Shown here piece by piece: positions 24,387 to 37,275 of a stretch of 64,000 bases of DNA (within the stretch, counting starts at the first letter, position 1; each line of letters opens with the position of its first letter). The position numbers were made by a program, and so were the translations under genes. Source of the stretch: Thermoplasmatota archaeon (GTDB taxonomy: Archaea > Thermoplasmatota > Thermoplasmata > UBA10834). The notes under the pieces were generated by a model. That model saw nothing but the letters and a program-made list of their open reading frames with translations, searched no databases and had not been told where the DNA came from. The stretch is taken from assembly GCA_040751795.1 (NCBI GenBank), contig JBFMHR010000002.1, forward strand, positions 192,001-256,000, given 5' to 3'.

Positions 24387-24550
24387 CCTTACCGTCCCCG
24401 CGCCCGCATGCGCTTGCCCAGGTTAAATAATTCGCGTGGACGCCGGCGGCGCTGCGGGAGGTCTCGGAGCTACTTGAGCCGAGGAAATCACCGAGTGCAA
24501 TCAAACCTTTGATTGAAAACGAAAAATATTTGTCTGGCTACGCATAGGTG

Positions 24551-24624
24551 TGCGGCCGTCGGGATTTGAACCCGAGTTTTTAGCTTGGCAAGCTAAAGTG
24601 ATAACCAGTCTACACTACGGCCGC
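24551..24624 (-). tRNA. tRNA-Gly (anticodon GCC), CCA not encoded
   Basis: Reverse complement: acceptor GCGGCCG/CGGCCGC, anticodon arm TTAGC-TTGCCAA-GCTAA, T arm TCGGG-TTCAAAT-CCCGA, discriminator A. Confidence 0.97.
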
Positions 24625-27109: not shown

Positions 27110-28120
27110 ATGGAGACCAGGAAGATCCAGAAGACCGGCGGCTCGACCTACATAGTCTCGCTGCCCAAGTACTGGGTGGCGGGGGCGAAGCTCAAGGAGG
27201 GGGACTCTGTGTCCATGTCCGTCGACAGCGGCGGGACCTTGGTCGTGGACCCCGTGACCGGCGGCAAGCGCCCCGCGGTCTCGATAGAGGTGTTCGTGGA
27301 CGAGGAGGAGAATTCCCTCCACTTCCTGCGGAGGCTCATAGGCCTGTACGTCACCGGCTACGACGAGATCGTGGTTCGTTCGAGGGGAAGGATCCCCACG
27401 GAGACCAGGACGGCCGTCCGCGACTTCACCAGGAGGGTGATCGGCCCCCAGATAGTCGAGGAGTCGGCCTCCGCGATAACAATACTCGACGTCGCGGACC
27501 ACTCTCACCTGGACATGAGGAAGATTCTCAAGCGCATGCACCTGATGGCGCGCTCGATGCACGGCGACGCCATCGAGGCCATGGTCGAGGGCAACGCGGA
27601 GCTCGCCGCGGACGTCGTCGCGAGGGACGACGAGGTTGACAGGCTCTACTGGTTCATGTCGAAGCAGCAGGGCATGATGATGAGGGACCCCGGAATGGTG
27701 AGGAAGGTCGGCGTGAGCGTCCCGGAGGCGACCTACTATCTCTCCGCCTCGAAGGCGCTCGAGAGGATAGCGGACCACGCCGCCCGGATAGCCCTCAGGG
27801 CCGGGGCGCTCGCGGGCGAGAGGCTCCCCGAGAAGGTCGTCGCGGAGGCGAGGGCCTACAGCGCGACGGTCGTCTCGGTGCTCGACAGGTCCGTGGAATC
27901 GATGCTCAAGGGCGACCTGAAGGTGGCCAACGAGGTCGTCGACGAGGCCGAGACCCTCCGGGGGAGGAGGGAGCCCTTCATGAGGCTCCTGATGGACCAG
28001 AAGGGGCGGTTCGCGGTCCCACTGACCCTGATCATGGAGAGCCTCGAGAGGACCGCCCTCTACTCGGCGGACATCGCCGAGATAGGCATCAACCTGGCGG
28101 GGAACCACGCCAAGGCATGA
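27110..28120 (+). CDS. phoU: Archaeal phosphate uptake regulator (AbrB-type N-domain plus two PhoU domains)
   Basis: RKIQKTGGSTYIVSLPK; DDEVDRLY, LERIADHA, SLERTALY. Confidence 0.92.
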   Translation: METRKIQKTGGSTYIVSLPKYWVAGAKLKEGDSVSMSVDSGGTLVVDPVTGGKRPAVSIEVFVDEEENSLHFLRRLIGLYVTGYDEIVVRSRGRIPTETRTAVRDFTRRVIGPQIVEESASAITILDVADHSHLDMRKILKRMHLMARSMHGDAIEAMVEGNAELAADVVARDDEVDRLYWFMSKQQGMMMRDPGMVRKVGVSVPEATYYLSASKALERIADHAARIALRAGALAGERLPEKVVAEARAYSATVVSVLDRSVESMLKGDLKVANEVVDEAETLRGRREPFMRLLMDQKGRFAVPLTLIMESLERTALYSADIAEIGINLAGNHAKA

Positions 28121-28241
28121 GCCGCCGGGGCGGCGCCGCTGGCCTCCCGTGTGCCAGCCAGGCATTTACCAAAGGCTTAAGAGGGGCAGAGTTTATTTAC
28201 CCGAAGAGCATGTTTGAGCCTCCCTGAGCGGAGGGGACCTT

Positions 28242-28784
28242 ATGAGCGACGATGACCTAATGAAAGTCAAGATATGCTTCATCGGGGACGCGGGCGTCGG
28301 CAAGACCAGCCTTATAAAGAGATTCGTCCTGGACGTCTTCGACGACAGGTACATTGCCACCATCGGCACGAAGGTCACCAAGAAGATCGTGGAGGTCAAC
28401 GACCAGGGTGTCAACACCAAGGTCATGATGCTCGTCTGGGACATCATGGGCCAGAAGGGCTTCAGGGAGCTGCTCCGCGAGGCGTACTTCTTCGGCGCCC
28501 ACGGCGCCATCGCGGTGTGCGACCTGACGAACAAGGAGACCCTGGAGGAGCTCAGGTACTGGATCAAGGCCCTGACGGACGTGGCGGGCGATGTCCCGAT
28601 CGTGTTCGCGGGGAACAAGGCCGACATGGAGAACGAGCGGGTCGTCAAGGAGACCGACCTGCAGGAGCTGGCCGCCAAGTACAATTCCAAGGCCTTCCTC
28701 ACCAGCGCCAAGACCGGACAGAACGTCGACGAGGTCTTCAAGGCCCTCGGCCTGGCCGTCTCCGAGAAGATGGGCTCCAAGTAG
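28242..28784 (+). CDS. Rab/Ras-like small GTPase
   Basis: G1 GDAGVGKTS, G2 YIATIG, G3 WDIMGQ, G4 NKAD, G5 TSAKTG; no C-terminal prenylation cysteine. Confidence 0.95.
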   Translation: MSDDDLMKVKICFIGDAGVGKTSLIKRFVLDVFDDRYIATIGTKVTKKIVEVNDQGVNTKVMMLVWDIMGQKGFRELLREAYFFGAHGAIAVCDLTNKETLEELRYWIKALTDVAGDVPIVFAGNKADMENERVVKETDLQELAAKYNSKAFLTSAKTGQNVDEVFKALGLAVSEKMGSK

Positions 28785-28915
28785 GCGCCAGTGTCCATTA
28801 CCAGGCCTGATAACGATTTGAGAACGCTTATAAGCCCAGCAGCGGCTATGAACCTACCTGCGGATAGCGAGAGGGGCGTCTTAGACGCATGATGGAGGTT
28901 CGCGTAGGAGGCAGC

Positions 28916-31900
28916 ATGCCCGCTCGGGTTCGGGGCGGCCCAACCGCGGTTCTTCTGGCGGTCATCATCCTCGGGAGCTCGGTCATCCCCCTCATGGACT
29001 ACTCGGTCGCCCCCGCCTCTGCCGAGTCGCTCCCGCTCTGGTCCAAGACATTCCGGATGCACGAGGGGGTCCCGTCAGTCGTGAGCGACTACGACTGGCT
29101 CAACACCTCCGCCCCGCAGAACCCAGGTGACCTGGACTACGACGGGGACGGCCTCCTCGGCGTCACGATCAGGAAGAACCTCCCGTCGCAGAGGTGGAGG
29201 CACTTCTGGGCCCTGGACCCGCCCGTCAACGCGGACGTGAGGGTCCTCGGCGACATCGATTTCCACATATGGGCGGCCTCGAGGGACAACGAGTCCGCGT
29301 CCATACTGACCGTCCTCCTCTCGGACATGGCGCCTGGGCAGTGGTCCCTGCCTGGCGACTGGGTCGCGGTGGGCACCGCGAGCATCCCCCTCCAGGGGCC
29401 GGTGTTCTCCGCCTTCAAGGCGTACGACCTGACCGTCGCGGGAGTCGACCACACCCTTGCGGAAGGCCACCGCCTCGTGCTCACGATCATGAGGGGGGAC
29501 TCCCTCAACGACGGGCTCCTCATCCTGTACGACGACGACTACTTCGACTCCTACATCGTGACCCCGGTCGAGGACTTCGTCTCGGTCTCGTCCGTCTGGA
29601 CCGAGGACGGCTCCGGCGCTGCGACCGATGTCTTCTCCGACTCGGAGCCGATAGTCGTGCTCGCGAACGTCACGAACCCGTTCGGGACCTACGAGACTGC
29701 GCCCGCGGAGTGCACGGTCGTCTACAGCTCCAACGGGACGGTCGTCGAGCCCAGGGCCGCCATGACGGCGGTGGCCGTGGACCCCTCTCCCGACTCATCC
29801 TGGATCCTCTTCTCCTCCTCCGTCGGCCCCCTCGGCAGCGGCGAATACACCATATCGGTCAACGGCAGCGACCCCCACGGCTCCCCGACCTGGATGAACG
29901 CCTCGGTGTCGGTCGTGGCCGTCGACCACTTCTCCGTCGCCGCCCCGGCCTCGGTCACCGCGGGCGTGGAGTTCGAGATGAGCGTGACGGCCCTCGACTC
30001 GGCTGACGCGGTCATCCCCAACTGGCGCGGAACCGTCACTCTCGAGGCCTACGAAGAGGACATGGTCACGCCCTTGCCAGAGCCCCTCTGGAACTCGTCG
30101 GTGGAGTTCGACGGGACGAGCGGCGGGGCGGTCACGGTCTACGACCAGGTATACAACGTCAGCGAGGAGGTCATGGTGATCAGGGCCTCCTCCAACGGCC
30201 ATCTCGGCTGGAGCGCGCCGGTCGCCGTGTTCGCGGGGCCGGTGGCCTCGGTCTCCTTGGAACCGTCCGGTCCGCTCTCCGTGGAGCTGGGCGGCTCCCA
30301 GCTGTTCACGGCCGAGGGGCGCGACTCGACCGGGCACCTGAACCTCAGCTGGTCCGCGGTGTGGTCCCTGGACGGGGACATCGGCGGCCTGGTCCCGTCG
30401 GGGTTCGCCGCGACGCTCACCGTCGACTCCGCGGGCAGCGGGGTCGTCCGGTGCGTGGACGCCTCCTCCGACGCCAACGCGTCCGCCGACGTGACGGTCG
30501 ACGCGGGCCCGCTCGCGAGGATCGAGCTGACCCCTGCCGGCCCCATCACGGTGAAGGAGGGGGAGACGGTCCCCGTGACGGCCGTCGGCTACGACTCGTT
30601 CGACAACGTCGTCCCGCTACCGGGCCCGATGTGGTACACGAACACATCAGGCCAGATCACGGGGACGGGCCCATCCGTAACTTACAAGGCGGGCTTCATC
30701 CCGGAGGCGGGCGTGATAACCGTGTCCTCGGGGACGACGAGCGCGTCCCTCGCGGTCACGGTCACCAACGCCCTGAACGGCCCGTGGCTCAGCACCATCC
30801 CGACCCAGATCGCAAACGAGGACGGTTCCTGGACGCTCAGCCTCGCGTCCTACTGGAACCACGTGAACGGGACGTCCGCCCTGAGGTGGTACGCGGAAGG
30901 GGTGGACAACTCCCTCTACATCATCACCTTCGATCCCGCGTCCCCCGCGCTGGTCCTGTTCATGACCCAGCCCGACAAGTCGGGGACCGACACGTTCAGG
31001 CTCTGGGTCAGGGACGCCGACGGCTACTCGACCTACCAGGACGTCGTGGTGAGCATCCAGCCGGTCAACGACATGCCGGTGTTCGTGCACACGCCCCCGA
31101 CCGAGTTCTACGTCAAGTTCAACACCCCGTACTCGTTCGACTTCGAGTACTACGTCTCCGACGTCGACAACCCGCCCGAGGAGCTCATGATGTTCGCGAC
31201 GTCCTCCGAGTGGGGCTCGGTCGTGTTCGAGGGCTTCATAGCGTCGTTCCTCTTCATCGAGAAGGACGGCAGGGAGAGCTACTTCGAGACCATGAGGGTC
31301 ACGCTGACGGACGCCTCGTCCCAGCAGGCGGCGGACTCGACCAACTCCGCCTACCTCGGGATAGTGGTGTGGGTGACCGAGGACACGCCGCCGGACCTGA
31401 CCGCCGAGCTCCCGGACGTCACGGACCTCATGGAGGGCGAGATGGACAGGCCGGTCTTCGACCTCGACGACTACTTCGAGGACATCGACGAGGACGTGCT
31501 CCTCTACGACTACGGTTTCCTCAACATCGACGTGGACATCGACCCGGACACCCACGTCGTCAACATGTCGGCCCCCTACGAGTGGTCTGGCATGACGGAC
31601 GGGACCTTCACCGCGGTCGACCCGACGGGCGCCTTCAAGACGGACACGGTCACCGTGACGGTCATCCCCGTCAACGACGCCCCCTCCGTGACCTCGCCGG
31701 AGTCGGTCCATGTACGCTACGACGTCGAGTATAGGCTCGACGCTGGCATGTACGTGCACGACCCCGACCACTCGTTCGCCGAGCTCACGTTCACCTTCGA
31801 CAGCCCGTACGTCTCGTATTCCGGCGGTGACATCTGCCTGCTCTTCCCCCCGGACCTGCTGGGGGGGTCGTACGATGGCGCCTACAACGTCTACGTCATG

Positions 31901-33109
31901 ATGATGGTGGAGGACCCGGAGGGGGCGAGGGACTGGGGCAACTTCACGGTCACCGTGAGCGACAACTATCCCCCGGGGACGGTCGACCCGGTCCCCTACC
32001 CCGACATCGTCTCCTTCCCCGAGGACGGCTACCTCAACGGCACCATCGACCTGGACGCGCTGTTCTTCGACCCGGACGACTCGGACCTCACCTACGTCGT
32101 CGAGTTCGTCGGCGGGGGCGGCGACCTGAAGGTCGCGATATATGAGGACGGTTCCGTGAACTTCTCCGCCGCGGCCAACTGGTCCGGCTATCAGGTCGTG
32201 AAGTTCATATGCAACGACACCCACCATGCCCGGGCCTTCTGGAGCCTCATGGTCGTCGTGACCCCGGTCAACGACGCGCCAGTCGTCGAGCAGATCCGGG
32301 ACAGGACATTCGTCGGGTGGCCGGGCAGCTTCCAGCTGTTCATCATGCAGTACGTGTGGGACAGGGAGACGCCCTTCCTGGACCTGGACATCTTCGCGAC
32401 CCCGGACACGCAGGTCTCGGCGGTCGGAAGGTACCTCTTCGTCAGCATGCAGGAGGGCCAGGACGAGATAGCCATCACCCTCTACGTCGAGGACGCCGAG
32501 GGCGCGCGCTCCGAGACCGTCACGTTCACAGTCAAGCTGGAGAAGACCACCGCCGACGCCATCGGCTACCCATACACCTTCCCGCTGGTCCTCCTCGCTG
32601 CCGCGGTCGCCGGCTACTTCATCGCGAGCAGGCTCCCGAGACCCTACTCCCTCGAGAACCTCTTCCTGATACACAACGACGGAAGGCTCGTGGCCCACGT
32701 GACCAGGGAGGAGAACACCAGCATAGACAAGGACGTGGTGAGCGCCATGTTCACCGCGGTCCAGGAGTTCGTGCGCGACTCCTTCCAGGCCGGCGAGGTC
32801 GGCCTCAAGAAGCTCGAGATAGGCGACAAGAACGTCCTCATCGAGAAGGGCAAGTCCGTCTACGTTGCGATGATCTACTCCGGCTGGCCGCCGAAGGACG
32901 TCTTCGGCAACATCCCGATGCTCCTCAGGGACATCGAGGAGCGCTACGGCGAGAGGATCGAGCACTGGAACGGGACGATGAAGACGGTGAAGGGCGTCGA
33001 GGGCATGCTGCAGAAGTTCATGTCGAAGGAGTTCAGGCCCGGCTCGTGGACCGCCGAGGAGGAGATCCGCGAGGAGGAGTGGGTGGACATCCTCTCCAAG
33101 GAGAGCTGA
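28916..33109 (+). CDS. Large single-pass cell-surface protein: signal peptide, Ig-like and cadherin-like repeats, TM helix, cytoplasmic longin/roadblock-like domain
   Basis: AGGAGG SD then MPARV..AVLLAVIILG..PASA; linkers PVNDMP and PVNDAP (x2); acidic DxD motifs; TM FPLVLLAAAVAGYFIA; tail LFLIHNDGRLV...SAMFTAVQEFVRDSF. Fold of the tail is inferred. Confidence 0.85.
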   Translation: MPARVRGGPTAVLLAVIILGSSVIPLMDYSVAPASAESLPLWSKTFRMHEGVPSVVSDYDWLNTSAPQNPGDLDYDGDGLLGVTIRKNLPSQRWRHFWALDPPVNADVRVLGDIDFHIWAASRDNESASILTVLLSDMAPGQWSLPGDWVAVGTASIPLQGPVFSAFKAYDLTVAGVDHTLAEGHRLVLTIMRGDSLNDGLLILYDDDYFDSYIVTPVEDFVSVSSVWTEDGSGAATDVFSDSEPIVVLANVTNPFGTYETAPAECTVVYSSNGTVVEPRAAMTAVAVDPSPDSSWILFSSSVGPLGSGEYTISVNGSDPHGSPTWMNASVSVVAVDHFSVAAPASVTAGVEFEMSVTALDSADAVIPNWRGTVTLEAYEEDMVTPLPEPLWNSSVEFDGTSGGAVTVYDQVYNVSEEVMVIRASSNGHLGWSAPVAVFAGPVASVSLEPSGPLSVELGGSQLFTAEGRDSTGHLNLSWSAVWSLDGDIGGLVPSGFAATLTVDSAGSGVVRCVDASSDANASADVTVDAGPLARIELTPAGPITVKEGETVPVTAVGYDSFDNVVPLPGPMWYTNTSGQITGTGPSVTYKAGFIPEAGVITVSSGTTSASLAVTVTNALNGPWLSTIPTQIANEDGSWTLSLASYWNHVNGTSALRWYAEGVDNSLYIITFDPASPALVLFMTQPDKSGTDTFRLWVRDADGYSTYQDVVVSIQPVNDMPVFVHTPPTEFYVKFNTPYSFDFEYYVSDVDNPPEELMMFATSSEWGSVVFEGFIASFLFIEKDGRESYFETMRVTLTDASSQQAADSTNSAYLGIVVWVTEDTPPDLTAELPDVTDLMEGEMDRPVFDLDDYFEDIDEDVLLYDYGFLNIDVDIDPDTHVVNMSAPYEWSGMTDGTFTAVDPTGAFKTDTVTVTVIPVNDAPSVTSPESVHVRYDVEYRLDAGMYVHDPDHSFAELTFTFDSPYVSYSGGDICLLFPPDLLGGSYDGAYNVYVMMMVEDPEGARDWGNFTVTVSDNYPPGTVDPVPYPDIVSFPEDGYLNGTIDLDALFFDPDDSDLTYVVEFVGGGGDLKVAIYEDGSVNFSAAANWSGYQVVKFICNDTHHARAFWSLMVVVTPVNDAPVVEQIRDRTFVGWPGSFQLFIMQYVWDRETPFLDLDIFATPDTQVSAVGRYLFVSMQEGQDEIAITLYVEDAEGARSETVTFTVKLEKTTADAIGYPYTFPLVLLAAAVAGYFIASRLPRPYSLENLFLIHNDGRLVAHVTREENTSIDKDVVSAMFTAVQEFVRDSFQAGEVGLKKLEIGDKNVLIEKGKSVYVAMIYSGWPPKDVFGNIPMLLRDIEERYGERIEHWNGTMKTVKGVEGMLQKFMSKEFRPGSWTAEEEIREEEWVDILSKES

Positions 33110-33123
33110 GCCGGACCGGCCCC

Positions 33124-34812
33124 TCACTTCGCGGCTTCCCTCAGTGCGAAGTCGACCAGCCTCTCCCTCGGCTCCCCGAGCTCGACCCCGTACTCCTCCC
33201 TCAGACGCATGGCGATCTCGCGCCTCATGAAGGGGATCGGGAGGCACCCCGCATAGAGCAGCGTGTCGTGGAAGAGCTTCATGGAGAACCGGTCGCCGGT
33301 GGCGCGCCTCACGTCCTCGAGCAGCTGCAGCAGGGCGAGCTTCCCGATGAAGTACGACAGGTAGTAGGTGGGGCAGTAGGTGTAGCTCCTCGCCTCGCTG
33401 AGGGCGGCGTCCCTCTGCATGCTCGTCTCCCGCACGAGCATCTCGGCGACCTCGTCCGGCGTGGTCTCCCCCCTGGACAGCTTCACGTCCGCTATCACCC
33501 TGACGACCCTGAACATGAGGTCGCTCAGCTGGGCGAGCCTCCCCTCAGGGGTGTCGTTGAACCCCTGGTCCAGCATGAGCTCCTCGCAGTAGAGCGCCCA
33601 GCCCTCGCCGAAGTCCATCGAGTTGCTGAGCACGCGCACGAACGACGGGTGGGTGTTGGCGCATATCCCCTGCAGGTGGTGGCCAGGGTACCCCTCGTGG
33701 ACGGCCGTGTTGGATATCAGCGGGTAGCAGTGGTCCCTGAGTATCTCCTTGTTGTCGCTGGGCGTGACGAGGAACATGCCCGTCCGGGCCCCCGTGAACT
33801 TGCCGGGCTCGAACTGCGCCGCGAAGGGGGCCACGTGGCGCATGAAGGTCGGGGTCTCAATCACCCTGAGCTTCTCGCCGTCGGGCACCGTGGCGAGGTC
33901 CTTCCTGACCAGGAAGTCCCTGGCCCTCTGTATGTCCCTCCTGTAGCAGGCGAGGACCTCGTCGAAGTCGACCGGGTGCATGGACTTCATCAGGTGCAGC
34001 GCCTCGTCGACCGAGCCGGACCTCACCATCCTCCCCGCCGTCAGGGCCATGCGGTCCCTGGTCCTCGCCAGGTGGGCGGATCCGACCTCCAGGGCCTCGT
34101 CTGGGGTGATGTCGAACCCCTTGAGCCTCATGTAGCGCTCGAAGACGTCGGCGGCCATGTGCGTGTCCGGCCCGGAGCGAGGGAGCACCTCGTCCGCGAG
34201 CCATCGGTTGTACCCGTCCAGCGCTTCCTTGGCGCACCTCGCGGCCGAGGATAGCCTGGCGGTCCTGTCCGTCCTTCCGAACATGGCGGAGGCGTGCTCA
34301 TCGATGGTGTCGATGAACGGCAGGAGGGCCCTGCCGGTCTCGAGCGCGATCTCCGTCCAGAGCCTGCACGGGGCGGTCAACGCCGGCTTCGACCGCTCGA
34401 GGTACTCGGGGACCTTCTCCAGCCTGGAGGTTATCGCGTCTATCCTCTTCTCCAGGGGGCGGTCCTCCCGCGTGAAGAGGAAGAAGAGCGAGCTGCCGAG
34501 GTCCTCCGTGGCCATGGCCATCCTCTCGTGCATTCGGAGCTCCTCTATCTCGAAGATGCGCACCCTGAAGAGGTGGATGGCCAGGTCCCTGTCGATCCTC
34601 TCCTCCTCGGAGAGCTGGCCGTCCTGGAAACCCTGGAACTCCTTCACGACGGCCCTCAGCCTGGCCGCCTGGCGGGCGAACGCCTCGGGCGAGAGGTCCC
34701 TCACGCTGTGGTCGTACCTGTCCCACCCGAGCTGGGTCGCGTGGGCCGGGTCCCAGCCGAGCACTTCGTCTAGCACACGCTCGGTGAACTGAAGGAAGAG
34801 GGTGTTTGCCAC
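33124..34812 (-). CDS. DUF885-family putative metallopeptidase
   Basis: HEGYPGHHLQ, EGWALYCE, ADVKL, YLSYFIGK; GTG start inferred. Confidence 0.9.
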   Translation of the reverse strand: MANTLFLQFTERVLDEVLGWDPAHATQLGWDRYDHSVRDLSPEAFARQAARLRAVVKEFQGFQDGQLSEEERIDRDLAIHLFRVRIFEIEELRMHERMAMATEDLGSSLFFLFTREDRPLEKRIDAITSRLEKVPEYLERSKPALTAPCRLWTEIALETGRALLPFIDTIDEHASAMFGRTDRTARLSSAARCAKEALDGYNRWLADEVLPRSGPDTHMAADVFERYMRLKGFDITPDEALEVGSAHLARTRDRMALTAGRMVRSGSVDEALHLMKSMHPVDFDEVLACYRRDIQRARDFLVRKDLATVPDGEKLRVIETPTFMRHVAPFAAQFEPGKFTGARTGMFLVTPSDNKEILRDHCYPLISNTAVHEGYPGHHLQGICANTHPSFVRVLSNSMDFGEGWALYCEELMLDQGFNDTPEGRLAQLSDLMFRVVRVIADVKLSRGETTPDEVAEMLVRETSMQRDAALSEARSYTYCPTYYLSYFIGKLALLQLLEDVRRATGDRFSMKLFHDTLLYAGCLPIPFMRREIAMRLREEYGVELGEPRERLVDFALREAAK

Positions 34813-34983
34813 TGCGTTTCGAGCGAACGCCTCGCCGCGATATAAAAGTATATATAACTGCGTTAGGCGCGCCGACCTCCGCCCCGCCAGTGGCCAGTGC
34901 CCAGGGCCAGTGGGCCATCGGCGGCCCTGGCGCGCCCCCACCGCAAAGACTTATACCGCCCCCGTCTAATCCCAAAGACCCAG

Positions 34984-37275
34984 ATGTCGAACCAGAGCGG
35001 ACAGTCAGTCACTGTCACACTTCGGCGTGACCTCGGCCTTTTCGACGTGACGATGATAGGCGTGGGCGCCATGATCGGCACGAGCATCTTCGTGCTAATC
35101 GGCGTCACGGCCGGCGAGGTCGGCTCAGCGGTCATGCTCGTGTTCCTGCTGAACGCGTTGGCAACGCTGTTCACCGCGGGGACCTACGCGGAGCTAGGGT
35201 CGACGTTCCCCGAGGCCGGCGGCGGCTACCTGTGGGCCAAGAAGGGGCTGAGGCACCCCGCTGCGTTCCTCTCCGGGTGGATGTCCTGGTTCGGCCACAC
35301 CGTCGCATGCAGCTACTACAGCCTCGGAATGGGCTACGCGATGCTGGCCTTCATGGGCTACTTCCAGATCGACTTCTTCGGCCTCAGCGACGAGATGATC
35401 GTCAAGGCGTTCGCCGCCGTGGCCATACTGGCGTTCCTCGGAGTCAACTACGTGGGCGTGGGAGCGACCGGGAAGGCCGGCTACAGCATCACCCTGGTCC
35501 AGGTCCTGATAGTGACCTTCTTCGTCGCCTTCGCGGTCCTCTACGCGCTGGACCTGAAGGGCGTCCACGTGCTGGAGAACTTCGACCCCCTCATCCCGGA
35601 GGACAAGGGCCTGGCCGACGTGTTCATGGTCATGGGGTTCACGTTCATCGCCTTCGAGGGGTACGAGATAATCGTCCAGTGCGGCGAGGAGGTCAAGAAC
35701 CCCAAGAAGAACGTCCCGAGGGCGATATTCATCTCGGTGGGGGTCGCGGCGCTCCTGTACCTGGGCGTGGCCTTCGCCTGCATCACCAACTTCACCCCAG
35801 AGTGGATCGGCTCCGAGGGCGAGAACGCGGTCATATCGGTCTCGGAGCAGGTGATCCCGTACTTCGGCGCCCCCCTGGTCATATTCGGCAGCGTGCTCTC
35901 GGCCATGGCGGCCCTCAACGCGACCGTCTTCTCCTCGTCCAGGGTGAGCTTCGCCATGGGCCGGGACAGGTCCCTCCCGCGGCTGTTCGGCTCGATCCAC
36001 AGGACCAGGAGGGTCCCGCACAACGCCATACTCGTCACCGGCGCGATCATGCTCTTCATGGCCCTCTTCTTCCCGCTCGAGGTGGTCGTGGCGTCCACCT
36101 CGATCATGTTCCTCCTGCTCTTCACCCTGGCGAACGCGGCCTCCATAAGGCTGAGGCGGAGGCTCACCAAGATAGACATCGGCTACAAGACCCCCCTCTT
36201 CCCCCTCTTCCCCGTCATGGGGATCGTCTGCAGCCTGGCCATCGCCGCGTACCTCTATCTCTTCATGCCCATCGCGTGGTACATCACCGCCATATGGGTC
36301 GCCGTCGGGCTCGCGTTCTCCGCGTTCGCCAAGCCCTCCGAGGAGTACCAGTCCATCGTGGAGAGGAGGAGGGTCCCGCAGAGGCCCCTGTCGAAGGAGC
36401 AGATCGACAGGTACAGGGTCTTCCTCGCCCTCGGCGACCTGGGCGACCTCAGGCTCGTCGAGACCGCGGGCATAATAGCGAGGTACTTCAAGGGCGACCT
36501 GACGGTGAACAACGTGGTCGAGGTGCCGAGGGCGATGCCCCTGGAGGCCATCAGCAAGGACTATGTCGACGAGATCGCCATGGGCCTCAAGAAGGCGGTC
36601 AAGGTCGCCCCGTCAACCGTCTCCGTCAGGCCCGTAGTCTCGGTGTCGTACTACGTCCCGGGGGCGATACTCGACCAGATCAAGCACGAGGCGGCCAACC
36701 TCCTCGTCCTCGGGTGGAAGGGCACCAAGAGGCGCGGCAGGACCATCCTCGGCAGGAACCTGGACGAGGTGGTGAGGCGCGCGCCGTGCGACGTCGCCAT
36801 CATCAAGACGAAGAGGCTGAGCAAGAGCATAGACCGGATACTGGTCGTGTCGGGGAAGTACTTCGAGACGAGGAAGGCGCTCCTCCTCGCCCTCCCGCTC
36901 GCGAGGGAGTACGGCGCCTCCATCGAGATACTGGCCGTGATCACCGAGGACCGTCAGGTCGCCCTCGCGAAGGGCAACGCGGAGCGGCTGAGCAAGGTCT
37001 GCGCCCGCGCCAACGTGAGCCACGAGGTGAGGTACCTGAGGTCCAAGTCCCTCGTGCACGCCGTCCAGCAGGAGACCCCGAAGTTCGACCTCCTCGTGAT
37101 GGGCGCGGGCCCGCAGACCGCCATAGAGAGGACCCTCTTCGGCGCGTCGTTCGACAGGATAATCAGGTCCGTGGACGTGCCCGTCATGATACTGAAGACC
37201 ACGAACGTCGGGAAGACGCCCCAGCCCGGGGCGATGCCCTTCCCGCAGTTCATGCCGCCGGGCAGGACCTCCTAG
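34984..37275 (+). CDS. APC-family amino acid permease with two C-terminal USP-like domains
   Basis: GAMIGTSIF, EAGGGY, FIAFEGYE, EEVKNP, SSSRVSFAMGRD; LLVLGW..APCDV and LLVMGA..DVPVMI. Confidence 0.9.
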   Translation: MSNQSGQSVTVTLRRDLGLFDVTMIGVGAMIGTSIFVLIGVTAGEVGSAVMLVFLLNALATLFTAGTYAELGSTFPEAGGGYLWAKKGLRHPAAFLSGWMSWFGHTVACSYYSLGMGYAMLAFMGYFQIDFFGLSDEMIVKAFAAVAILAFLGVNYVGVGATGKAGYSITLVQVLIVTFFVAFAVLYALDLKGVHVLENFDPLIPEDKGLADVFMVMGFTFIAFEGYEIIVQCGEEVKNPKKNVPRAIFISVGVAALLYLGVAFACITNFTPEWIGSEGENAVISVSEQVIPYFGAPLVIFGSVLSAMAALNATVFSSSRVSFAMGRDRSLPRLFGSIHRTRRVPHNAILVTGAIMLFMALFFPLEVVVASTSIMFLLLFTLANAASIRLRRRLTKIDIGYKTPLFPLFPVMGIVCSLAIAAYLYLFMPIAWYITAIWVAVGLAFSAFAKPSEEYQSIVERRRVPQRPLSKEQIDRYRVFLALGDLGDLRLVETAGIIARYFKGDLTVNNVVEVPRAMPLEAISKDYVDEIAMGLKKAVKVAPSTVSVRPVVSVSYYVPGAILDQIKHEAANLLVLGWKGTKRRGRTILGRNLDEVVRRAPCDVAIIKTKRLSKSIDRILVVSGKYFETRKALLLALPLAREYGASIEILAVITEDRQVALAKGNAERLSKVCARANVSHEVRYLRSKSLVHAVQQETPKFDLLVMGAGPQTAIERTLFGASFDRIIRSVDVPVMILKTTNVGKTPQPGAMPFPQFMPPGRTS

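Follow-up and report, generated by a model that had tools for sequence, protein, structure and literature searches.

The element considered here is a pair of adjacent genes on the forward strand of a 64,000-nucleotide (nt) stretch of DNA from a Thermoplasmatota archaeon (the window; G000:C12:192001-256000 of a genome of 2.05 Mb in 53 contigs with ~65% G+C). Names attached to close homologues are Thermoplasmata, Thermoplasmatota or Methanobacteriota archaeon metagenome-assembled genome (MAG). The first gene encodes a Ras/Rab-like, Rup-type GTPase of 180 aa (28242..28784), identified from the list of open reading frames (ORFs), Pfam and its motifs. The second encodes a type-I membrane protein of 1,397 aa (28916..33109), referred to as the receptor, which comprises a signal peptide or anchor, an acidic, β-rich ectodomain, a transmembrane helix, and a tail with a predicted longin fold. 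The two genes are separated by a 131-bp spacer (28785..28915), in whose sequence no T-run terminator was found. The large ORF spans 28889-33109 and yields 1,397 aa from the ATG at 28916, which has a GGAGG 4 nt on its 5′ side, while a GGAGGGG motif sits immediately 5′ of the GTPase ATG. An earlier note on this DNA had described a GTPase of 180 aa with all five G motifs, lying 131 bp 5′ of a protein of 1,397 aa in the same orientation; the coordinates of both ORFs agree with that layout, and every one of the motifs was found.

The GTPase belongs to the Ras superfamily. It matches Pfam Ras far above the cut-off of 21.6 bits (131.9 bits, E 2.1e-38), its best matches among solved structures are Sec4, Rab, and Ypt proteins (E ~5e-29), and G1 to G5 are all conserved (GDAGVGKT, T40, WDIMGQ, NKAD, and SAK), with the catalytic glutamine of G3 (DxxGQ) retained. 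Membership in the eukaryotic Rab family, which is marked by a prenylatable C-terminal cysteine motif and a hypervariable tail, was considered and rejected: the protein ends in ...SEKMGSK and has no C-terminal cysteine. Lacking a prenylation site, the GTPase is not strictly a Rab.

A Kyte–Doolittle scan of the 1,397-aa protein located exactly two hydrophobic segments, at residues 5-32 and 1219-1240. The first belongs to an N-terminal signal peptide or anchor (28916..29026), and the second to the single transmembrane helix (residues 1216-1238; 32561..32629), followed by RLPRP, a positive-inside signature. The two segments and the RLPRP that follows the helix mark the protein as type I in its membrane topology. 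Its cytoplasmic tail (32630..33106) has 159 aa, with the predicted longin-fold core (tail residues ~7-134) preceding an acidic C-terminal helix. The ectodomain (~1,180 aa) has a net charge of -128 and 18 N-x-S/T sequons, and is probably glycosylated. An AlphaFold2 (AF2) model of residues 38-400 (m5ee7f7c5dfa0; 9 orthologues), with a predicted local distance difference test score (pLDDT) of 80.8, was compared with known structures by Foldseek and by VIA, a structural search. The membrane-distal part is a β jelly-roll (residues 38-219; 29027..29572) that looks like the galactose-binding-like domain at the C-terminus of CocE/NonD and X-Pro dipeptidyl peptidases, with VIA Z of 16.7, 14.9, and 13.5 over 151-161 residues, a likeness with which Foldseek concurs. 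Adjoining it is an Ig/FN3-like β sandwich (residues 222-335; 29579..29920), a generic fold scoring Z ~10-11 against many Ig, FN3, and CBM sandwiches.

Closer to the membrane, residues 641-1210 (30836..32545) form a region of cadherin-like and bacterial Ig repeats that bears matches to Cadherin_4, Big_9, and a tandem-95 repeat, and three PVND(A/M)P linkers. Cadherin_4 at residues 911-960 exceeds its cut-off (28.0 bits vs 25.1), and Big_9 (residues 1025-1105) and the tandem-95 repeat fall below theirs; at the same positions in orthologues, Big_9 reaches 1e-14 (55.6 bits) and Cadherin_4 2e-8 (35 bits). The protein can thus be placed among the bacterial cadherin-like or Ig-repeat surface proteins, which are recognized by extracytoplasmic Cadherin_4, Big_9, or Cadherin_5 domains, and the probable ligand of its ectodomain is a surface, a cell, or a polymer. 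The acidic, adhesin-like ectodomain of cadherin and Ig repeats that the earlier note had proposed is borne out by the charge, the linkers, and the Cadherin_4 match, and the C-terminal domain of about 150 aa whose sequence it quoted was located in the 159-aa tail. Its reading of a signal peptide and one transmembrane helix holds for the helix; the N-terminal hydrophobic stretch is either a signal peptide or an anchor.

Searches with the single tail sequence gave no match in Pfam, NCBIfam, or the PDB, and a profile search of the PDB was likewise empty. An AF2 model of the tail built from a 30-sequence alignment has a pLDDT of 87.6 and a predicted template modelling score (pTM) of 0.81. Its elements follow the order β-β-α-β-β-β-α-α-α, with strands at 7-15 and 20-25, a helix at 34-51, strands at 59-64, 67-73, and 77-84, a helix at 90-111, and then more helices. 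At E<=1e-3, Foldseek matched this model in the PDB to longin and roadblock entries only, the best TM-scores among the matches listed being those of Sec22b (0.62/0.75; root-mean-square deviation, rmsd, 2.9) and Ykt6. Congruent with this, the highest 29 rows of an independent VIA search over 48,161 chains are longin-fold chains without exception. They are led by AP-3 sigma (Z 14.1, 143 aligned, rmsd 2.6), VAMP7 (13.1), Sec22 (13.0), and AP2 sigma (12.6); sedlin (11.3), Ykt6 (11.1), the Lokiarchaeota longin 8yqg (10.6), and Mon1-Ccz1 (10.0-10.3) score somewhat less, and Z is lower for roadblock, MglB, and LAMTOR structures (8.3-9.6) and for SRX (8.2-8.3). The predicted model has the β2-α-β3-α2 topology of longin domains and the likeness to solved longins expected of one. 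A roadblock/LC7 identity of the MglB kind was rejected, as the tail has no N-terminal helix, places two strands directly after the transmembrane helix, and scores lower against roadblock structures. The absence of the N-terminal helix and the presence of extra C-terminal helices make it longin rather than roadblock. That the tail adopts a longin fold is therefore well supported as a prediction. The longin/roadblock pattern read by the earlier note has thereby been narrowed: the longin half stands (Z 10-14 at a pLDDT of 87.6), and the roadblock half falls on topology. An unrelated fold, which the structural comparison proposed there might have returned, did not appear, all strong matches being longin or roadblock. 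Among 30 family members, sub-threshold profile matches occur to Fuz_longin_1 in two (best E 0.0011) and to Robl_LC7 in three (best E 0.04), with none for the tail itself, and its nearest neighbours in the ESM Atlas include unnamed Promethearchaeota clusters at 0.92, a lead only.

The tail is one member of a large family. An exhaustive HMMER search against 1.84 billion cluster representatives recovered 3,792 of them at E<=1e-3, 1,544 of which also pass E<=1e-10, from Thermoplasmata and some bacteria. The domain, whose core spans ~125 residues in the 30-sequence alignment, received no Pfam match over its own length in the 30 members scanned. It occurs as a transmembrane helix plus domain in proteins of 140-320 aa, at the C-terminus of very large proteins, and in proteins with two or three copies; partner domains in the scanned members are CARDB, Big_9, Cadherin_4, TPR, AAA_16 (STAND), DUF835, DUF5915, and zinc ribbons. 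In P0098 and P0144 the domain appears to form part of, or to adjoin, an AAA_16 ATPase of the STAND type with TPR repeats, in P0067 and P0082 it is fused to DUF835, and in P0005, P0015, P0018, P0123, and P0132 it stands alongside DUF5915 and CARDB. Triple-copy proteins are exemplified by a 2,181-aa ORF on the chromosome of a 5.2-Mb Thermoplasmata MAG (L031:2964-9506) and by P0005, with three matched stretches. Across 129 non-redundant domains the best-conserved positions, numbered along the tail, are G18, L20, H23, R26 (72%), D33, M40, F47, G74, G85, W113 (99%), and G115 (98%). Within the receptor itself the tail is the best-conserved region, with 92-36% identity vs 85-14% in bins of the ectodomain.

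Copies of the domain number 3-7 per genome in the host's family and up to 24 elsewhere. Five genomes (G029, G034, G088, G152, and G054) have ~20-24 domain matches each, together with 9-36 Ras-like GTPase matches, and tandem arrays of GTPase genes occur among such expanded lineages, for example at G040:C9:23710-26133 and in G152:C529.

The link between domain and GTPase is first apparent in the archaeon's own genome, which holds five Ras-family genes and four domain genes, two of the latter adjoining a GTPase gene. With five such genes in 2.05 Mb, the chance of an immediate GTPase neighbour is estimated at well under 1%. The second pair (locus L009; G000:C12:70041-71322) places a short gene encoding a transmembrane helix plus the domain (C12:70041-70448) immediately 5′ of the gene for a 271-aa Ras-like GTPase (C12:70507-71322), which bears a C-terminal extension of ~100 aa with no Pfam match, and this pair is kept in at least nine relatives. 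The distance between the two pairs is as large as that to other classes; each clusters with its own class in other genomes. Around the other three GTPase genes of the genome, the ORF listing contains no obvious partner. A third longin-tailed giant (~1,690 aa) lies convergent with a surface-type ORF of ~1,710 aa at G000:C45:190835-202022, with no GTPase gene nearby.

Among 41 genomes (40 relatives and G000), the domain is found in 38 and the GTPase in 39. The orthologous pair, GTPase first and receptor second with the same ~4.2 kb spacing, is present in 23 of the 40 relatives: 20 of 24 genomes of the same family, two of three of a second family, and one class-level relative, G033. The GTPase of G009 and that of G027 are situated at the end of a contig; among the matches listed, G001 has the tail without an orthologous GTPase, and G008, a genome 55% complete, has no orthologous pair; in G017 an orthologue of neither gene was seen. 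All eight relative regions that were fetched contain the pair. In G033 the pair is kept even though identity is only 24.5% for the receptor and 58% for the GTPase, and the flank genes compared there (QueC-like, PhoU-like, and DUF885) gave no match in the fetched region. A wider sample of 80 diverse loci, eight of them bacterial, was gathered with a family pattern derived from a 10-row alignment. A Ras-like GTPase ORF occurs in 38 of these, as the immediate neighbour on the same strand in 35, as a neighbour on the opposite strand in two, and 3.6 kb off in one. Of 121 genomes sampled across the phylum, both families occur in 22 and neither in 97; one has the domain alone and one the GTPase alone, both discordant matches being weak. 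Over the 38 adjacent pairs, distances among domains and among neighbouring GTPases correlate with r = 0.958, a value reached in none of 2000 permutations (0/2000; Mantel test). Adjacency across related genomes, which the earlier note had put forward as a check, is thus conserved beyond local synteny, in 23 of 40 relatives, in G033, and in bacterial loci.

The eight bacterial loci (L076, L077, L078, L082, L084, L086, L087, and L088) come from Acidobacteriota, including Pyrinomonadaceae, from Cyanobacteria and Gemmatimonadales, and from a proteobacterium, and the archaeal domain finds them by tblastn at E 1e-22 to 7e-22. Seven have a GTPase gene directly 3′ of the domain gene; the eighth (L088) ends 342 bp past the domain match. 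Where flanks were examined, the operon runs from a ~200-aa protein with no Pfam match through a domain protein of 470-600 aa and a GTPase of ~170 aa to an output protein. OmpA was found in two of four scanned bacterial membrane proteins carrying the domain, the bacterial GTPases have no G3 glutamine, and the outputs 3′ of the GTPase are PAS, cyclase, GGDEF-EAL, and HD-GYP proteins. The N-terminal domains of these outputs share a conserved QQK.N.LSL stretch. Neighbourhoods of this kind have been described as Group 1 Rup systems, predicted from bacterial genomes and experimentally uncharacterised, in which the membrane protein consists of a conserved domain whose function is not known, a transmembrane segment, and OmpA, and for which conservon-like signalling was hypothesised (Wuichet & Sogaard-Andersen, 2014; PMC4316618). 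The word longin has 0 occurrences in the text of that paper. Because the bacterial members are the proteins of these 2014 neighbourhoods, the gene linkage is of a known kind: the association of this domain with Rup GTPase genes in bacteria is already known. The archaeal pair likewise has a membrane protein with the conserved ‘Unc’ domain adjoining a rup gene. A full Group 1 Rup system was considered and rejected for the archaeal locus, where the GTPase has DxxGQ and profiles found neither the coiled-coil protein nor the output module, whose conserved Gln domain at the N-terminus is a mark of such systems.

The interpretation favoured here, at a probability of roughly 60%, is that the two genes constitute a minimal membrane-to-GTPase module, in which the longin tail binds the neighbouring GTPase and couples the state of the ectodomain to the GTP switch. 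The fold, the location of the tail just beneath the membrane, its status as the region under the strongest purifying selection, and the genetic linkage together make this the best-supported model. The tail would bind the GTPase, itself free of a lipid anchor, at the membrane, and would probably do so as a dimer, by analogy with other longin and roadblock platforms. In such platforms, longin/roadblock dimers are described as binding small GTPases in a conserved orientation and acting as guanine nucleotide exchange factors (GEFs) or GTPase-activating proteins (GAPs) (PMC10933270, PMC3521125). The tail might then set the nucleotide state of the GTPase, as a GEF or a GAP, or serve as its membrane docking site, and would in this way link the condition of the ectodomain to a GTP switch in the cytoplasm. 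If binding is real, a rough split among these roles would be 40% GEF-like, 30% GAP-like, and 30% docking or effector; as a speculation, R26 in the β2-α1 loop could act as an arginine finger.

Several observations weigh against a receptor tail that regulates its neighbouring GTPase. Two of the four domain genes of the genome are without an adjacent GTPase gene, as are 42 of the 80 loci in the flank available, many of these loci being truncated, and no natural fusion of domain and GTPase occurs among 170 proteins and the ORFs of the 80 loci. Each gene of the pair is preceded by its own TATA-like element, as read from the sequence: a weak, putative TTTATTTA at 28189..28201 on the forward strand, ~45 nt 5′ of the GTPase start, and a TTATAAG at ~28828 in the spacer; hence the two may be co-transcribed or may each be driven by a promoter of their own. 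Shared ancestry inflates both the co-occurrence and the Mantel correlation; that adjacency recurs between paralogous classes and between domains of life is independent of that inflation. Profiles built from the bacterial coiled-coil protein and the output-module N-terminal domain match all bacterial loci and nothing in the archaeal loci or the own genome, so that the archaeal system is a reduced two-gene version. On the structural side, neither a Pfam longin or roadblock threshold nor a solved structure was reached by sequence, so homology to eukaryotic longins is not established, and the longin fold itself belongs to a wider profilin/PAS/GAF-like class.

The same linkage evidence would also serve a module that runs in the reverse direction, from the inside out. 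The GTP-bound GTPase would dock on the tail and govern how the adhesin clusters, where it is localised, how it is turned over, or how adhesive it is, in the way that MglA places the machinery of motility and adhesion. The lack of an output gene beside the archaeal pair fits a surface protein that is itself the output, and the ectodomain resembles an adhesin more than a sensor of small ligands. Such control is nonetheless unlikely, as the bacterial operons end in PAS, cyclase, GGDEF-EAL, and HD-GYP outputs, which points to outside-in signalling for the family.

Decidedly more doubtful is the proposal that the tail only dimerises or anchors an adhesin or S-layer-like protein, and that the GTPase gene is a co-inherited, non-interacting neighbour. 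Many family members indeed have no GTPase neighbour, the SNARE and adaptor sigma longins that head the structural matches do not themselves regulate GTPases, and the synteny of the QueC-like and DUF885 flanks is also conserved. Yet mere co-inheritance sits poorly with an adjacency that recurs in two paralogous pairs of ancient divergence, in G033, where the flank genes compared gave no match, and in bacteria, with a near-perfect co-occurrence across genomes (22 both, 2 discordant, 97 neither), and with the co-divergence of domain and GTPase. That the tail is instead a PAS/GAF-like sensor of small molecules is very improbable: longin, roadblock, profilin, PAS, and GAF domains are described as sharing a core architecture (PMC4917890, PMC3521125), but each of the top 50 VIA rows is a chain of longin, roadblock, or SRX type or a complex that includes one, with no PAS or GAF sensor, and the best-conserved residues appear to lie on the central helix and the W-x-G turn, with no obvious pocket.

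Just 5′ of the GTPase gene, 27110-28120 (+) encodes a protein that has a PhoU domain and, at its N-terminus, an AbrB/MazE-like domain. Among the eight fetched relatives only G013 shares a PhoU-like gene at this position with G000, and the gene is therefore probably not part of the module. A DUF885 protein gene (33124-34941, minus strand) is convergent with the receptor gene and syntenic in close relatives, and is followed by a gene whose 792-aa product joins an amino-acid permease to two universal stress protein (Usp) domains (34897-37275, plus strand). The sole tRNA gene of the window, tRNA-Gly (GCC), lies at 24550-24624 on the minus strand.

Longin domains are usually regarded as eukaryotic, or at most Asgard. 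What the present analysis adds is a predicted longin-fold family outside Asgard, in bacteria too, that is genetically tied to the most Rab/Ras-like of prokaryotic GTPases. In the open-access literature searched, no description was found of the longin identity of the domain, of its expansion in archaea (Thermoplasmata), of its fusion to giant adhesin-like ectodomains, or of its near-perfect co-occurrence with Rab-like GTPases. The statement in the earlier note that no characterised system of this architecture is known in non-Asgard archaea still stands for archaea, where the searches made found none, but has to be qualified by the bacterial Rup precedent, itself only predicted. Were the coupling real, the ‘unknown’ bacterial Rup domain would gain a structural identity, and a simple two-protein system would be at hand for asking whether longin–GTPase regulation predates eukaryotes. 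Lipid-free archaeal Rab-like GTPases would also gain a candidate route to the membrane. Rab-like GTPases without a prenylation site have been described from a Thermoplasmatales archaeon and Aciduliprofundum, with the suggestion that archaeal Rab-like proteins might reach membranes through protein–protein interaction (Surkont & Pereira-Leal; PMC4915359), and the longin-tail family is a concrete candidate for recruiting such proteins. It may tentatively be proposed, against the greater likelihood that it is not so, that a partnership between longins and Rab/Ras-type GTPases exists outside Asgard and eukaryotes, embodied in a widespread single-pass ‘receptor-longin’ family of Thermoplasmata and the membrane component of bacterial Rup systems. 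If true, the pairing of longin and small GTPase that organises eukaryotic membrane traffic would predate eukaryogenesis, and would first have worked as a transmembrane signalling or adhesion switch, one amenable to biochemistry with small soluble domains.

Comparison with known systems places the archaeal pair among several partial relatives. Group 1 Rup systems share with it a homologous membrane-protein domain directly 5′ of a Ras-like GTPase gene. The membrane topology is reversed between the two, for the bacterial domain is, per the 2014 paper, N-terminal and cytoplasmic, followed by a transmembrane segment and a periplasmic OmpA, whereas the archaeal protein begins with an ectodomain of ~1,180 aa and carries the domain at its C-terminus; they differ also in the G3 glutamine, kept by the archaeal GTPase and absent from the bacterial ones. 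The Streptomyces conservon (CvnA-D), used as an analogy for Rup systems in PMC4316618, resembles the pair in concept, in that a domain of the roadblock/longin class couples a membrane sensor to a small GTPase. It employs four proteins, however (a histidine-kinase-like sensor, a roadblock protein, a DUF742 protein, and an MglA-like GTPase), from families absent from the archaeal pair. Eukaryotic longin platforms, among them Mon1-Ccz1, TRAPP, CPLANE, FLCN-FNIP and GATOR1, and SRX-SRbeta, share the predicted fold (Z 8-11.4) and a Rab-like partner, but are soluble multi-subunit complexes rather than the tail of a single-pass receptor, and no sequence homology to them was detected. The longin and roadblock proteins of Asgard archaea, which occur together with Rab-, Rag-, and Arf-like GTPases (PMC10933270; 8yqg), are likewise archaeal longin-fold domains, 8yqg reaching Z 10.6. 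In the Asgard strain MK-D1, GTPase genes are described as lying generally outside operons with roadblock or longin genes (PMC10933270), whereas in about half of the Thermoplasmata and bacterial tail family the two genes are regularly adjacent, and the host here is a member of the Thermoplasmata. In the MglA-MglB system of Myxococcus and Thermus, a small GTPase gene likewise adjoins a gene of the roadblock/longin class, and MglB structures score Z 8.4-8.7 against the tail. MglB, however, a roadblock-domain GAP, is soluble and possesses an N-terminal helix, and the G3 motif of MglA is of another kind, whereas the archaeal module combines a predicted longin topology with a membrane anchor and a GTPase of the Rab/Ras type.

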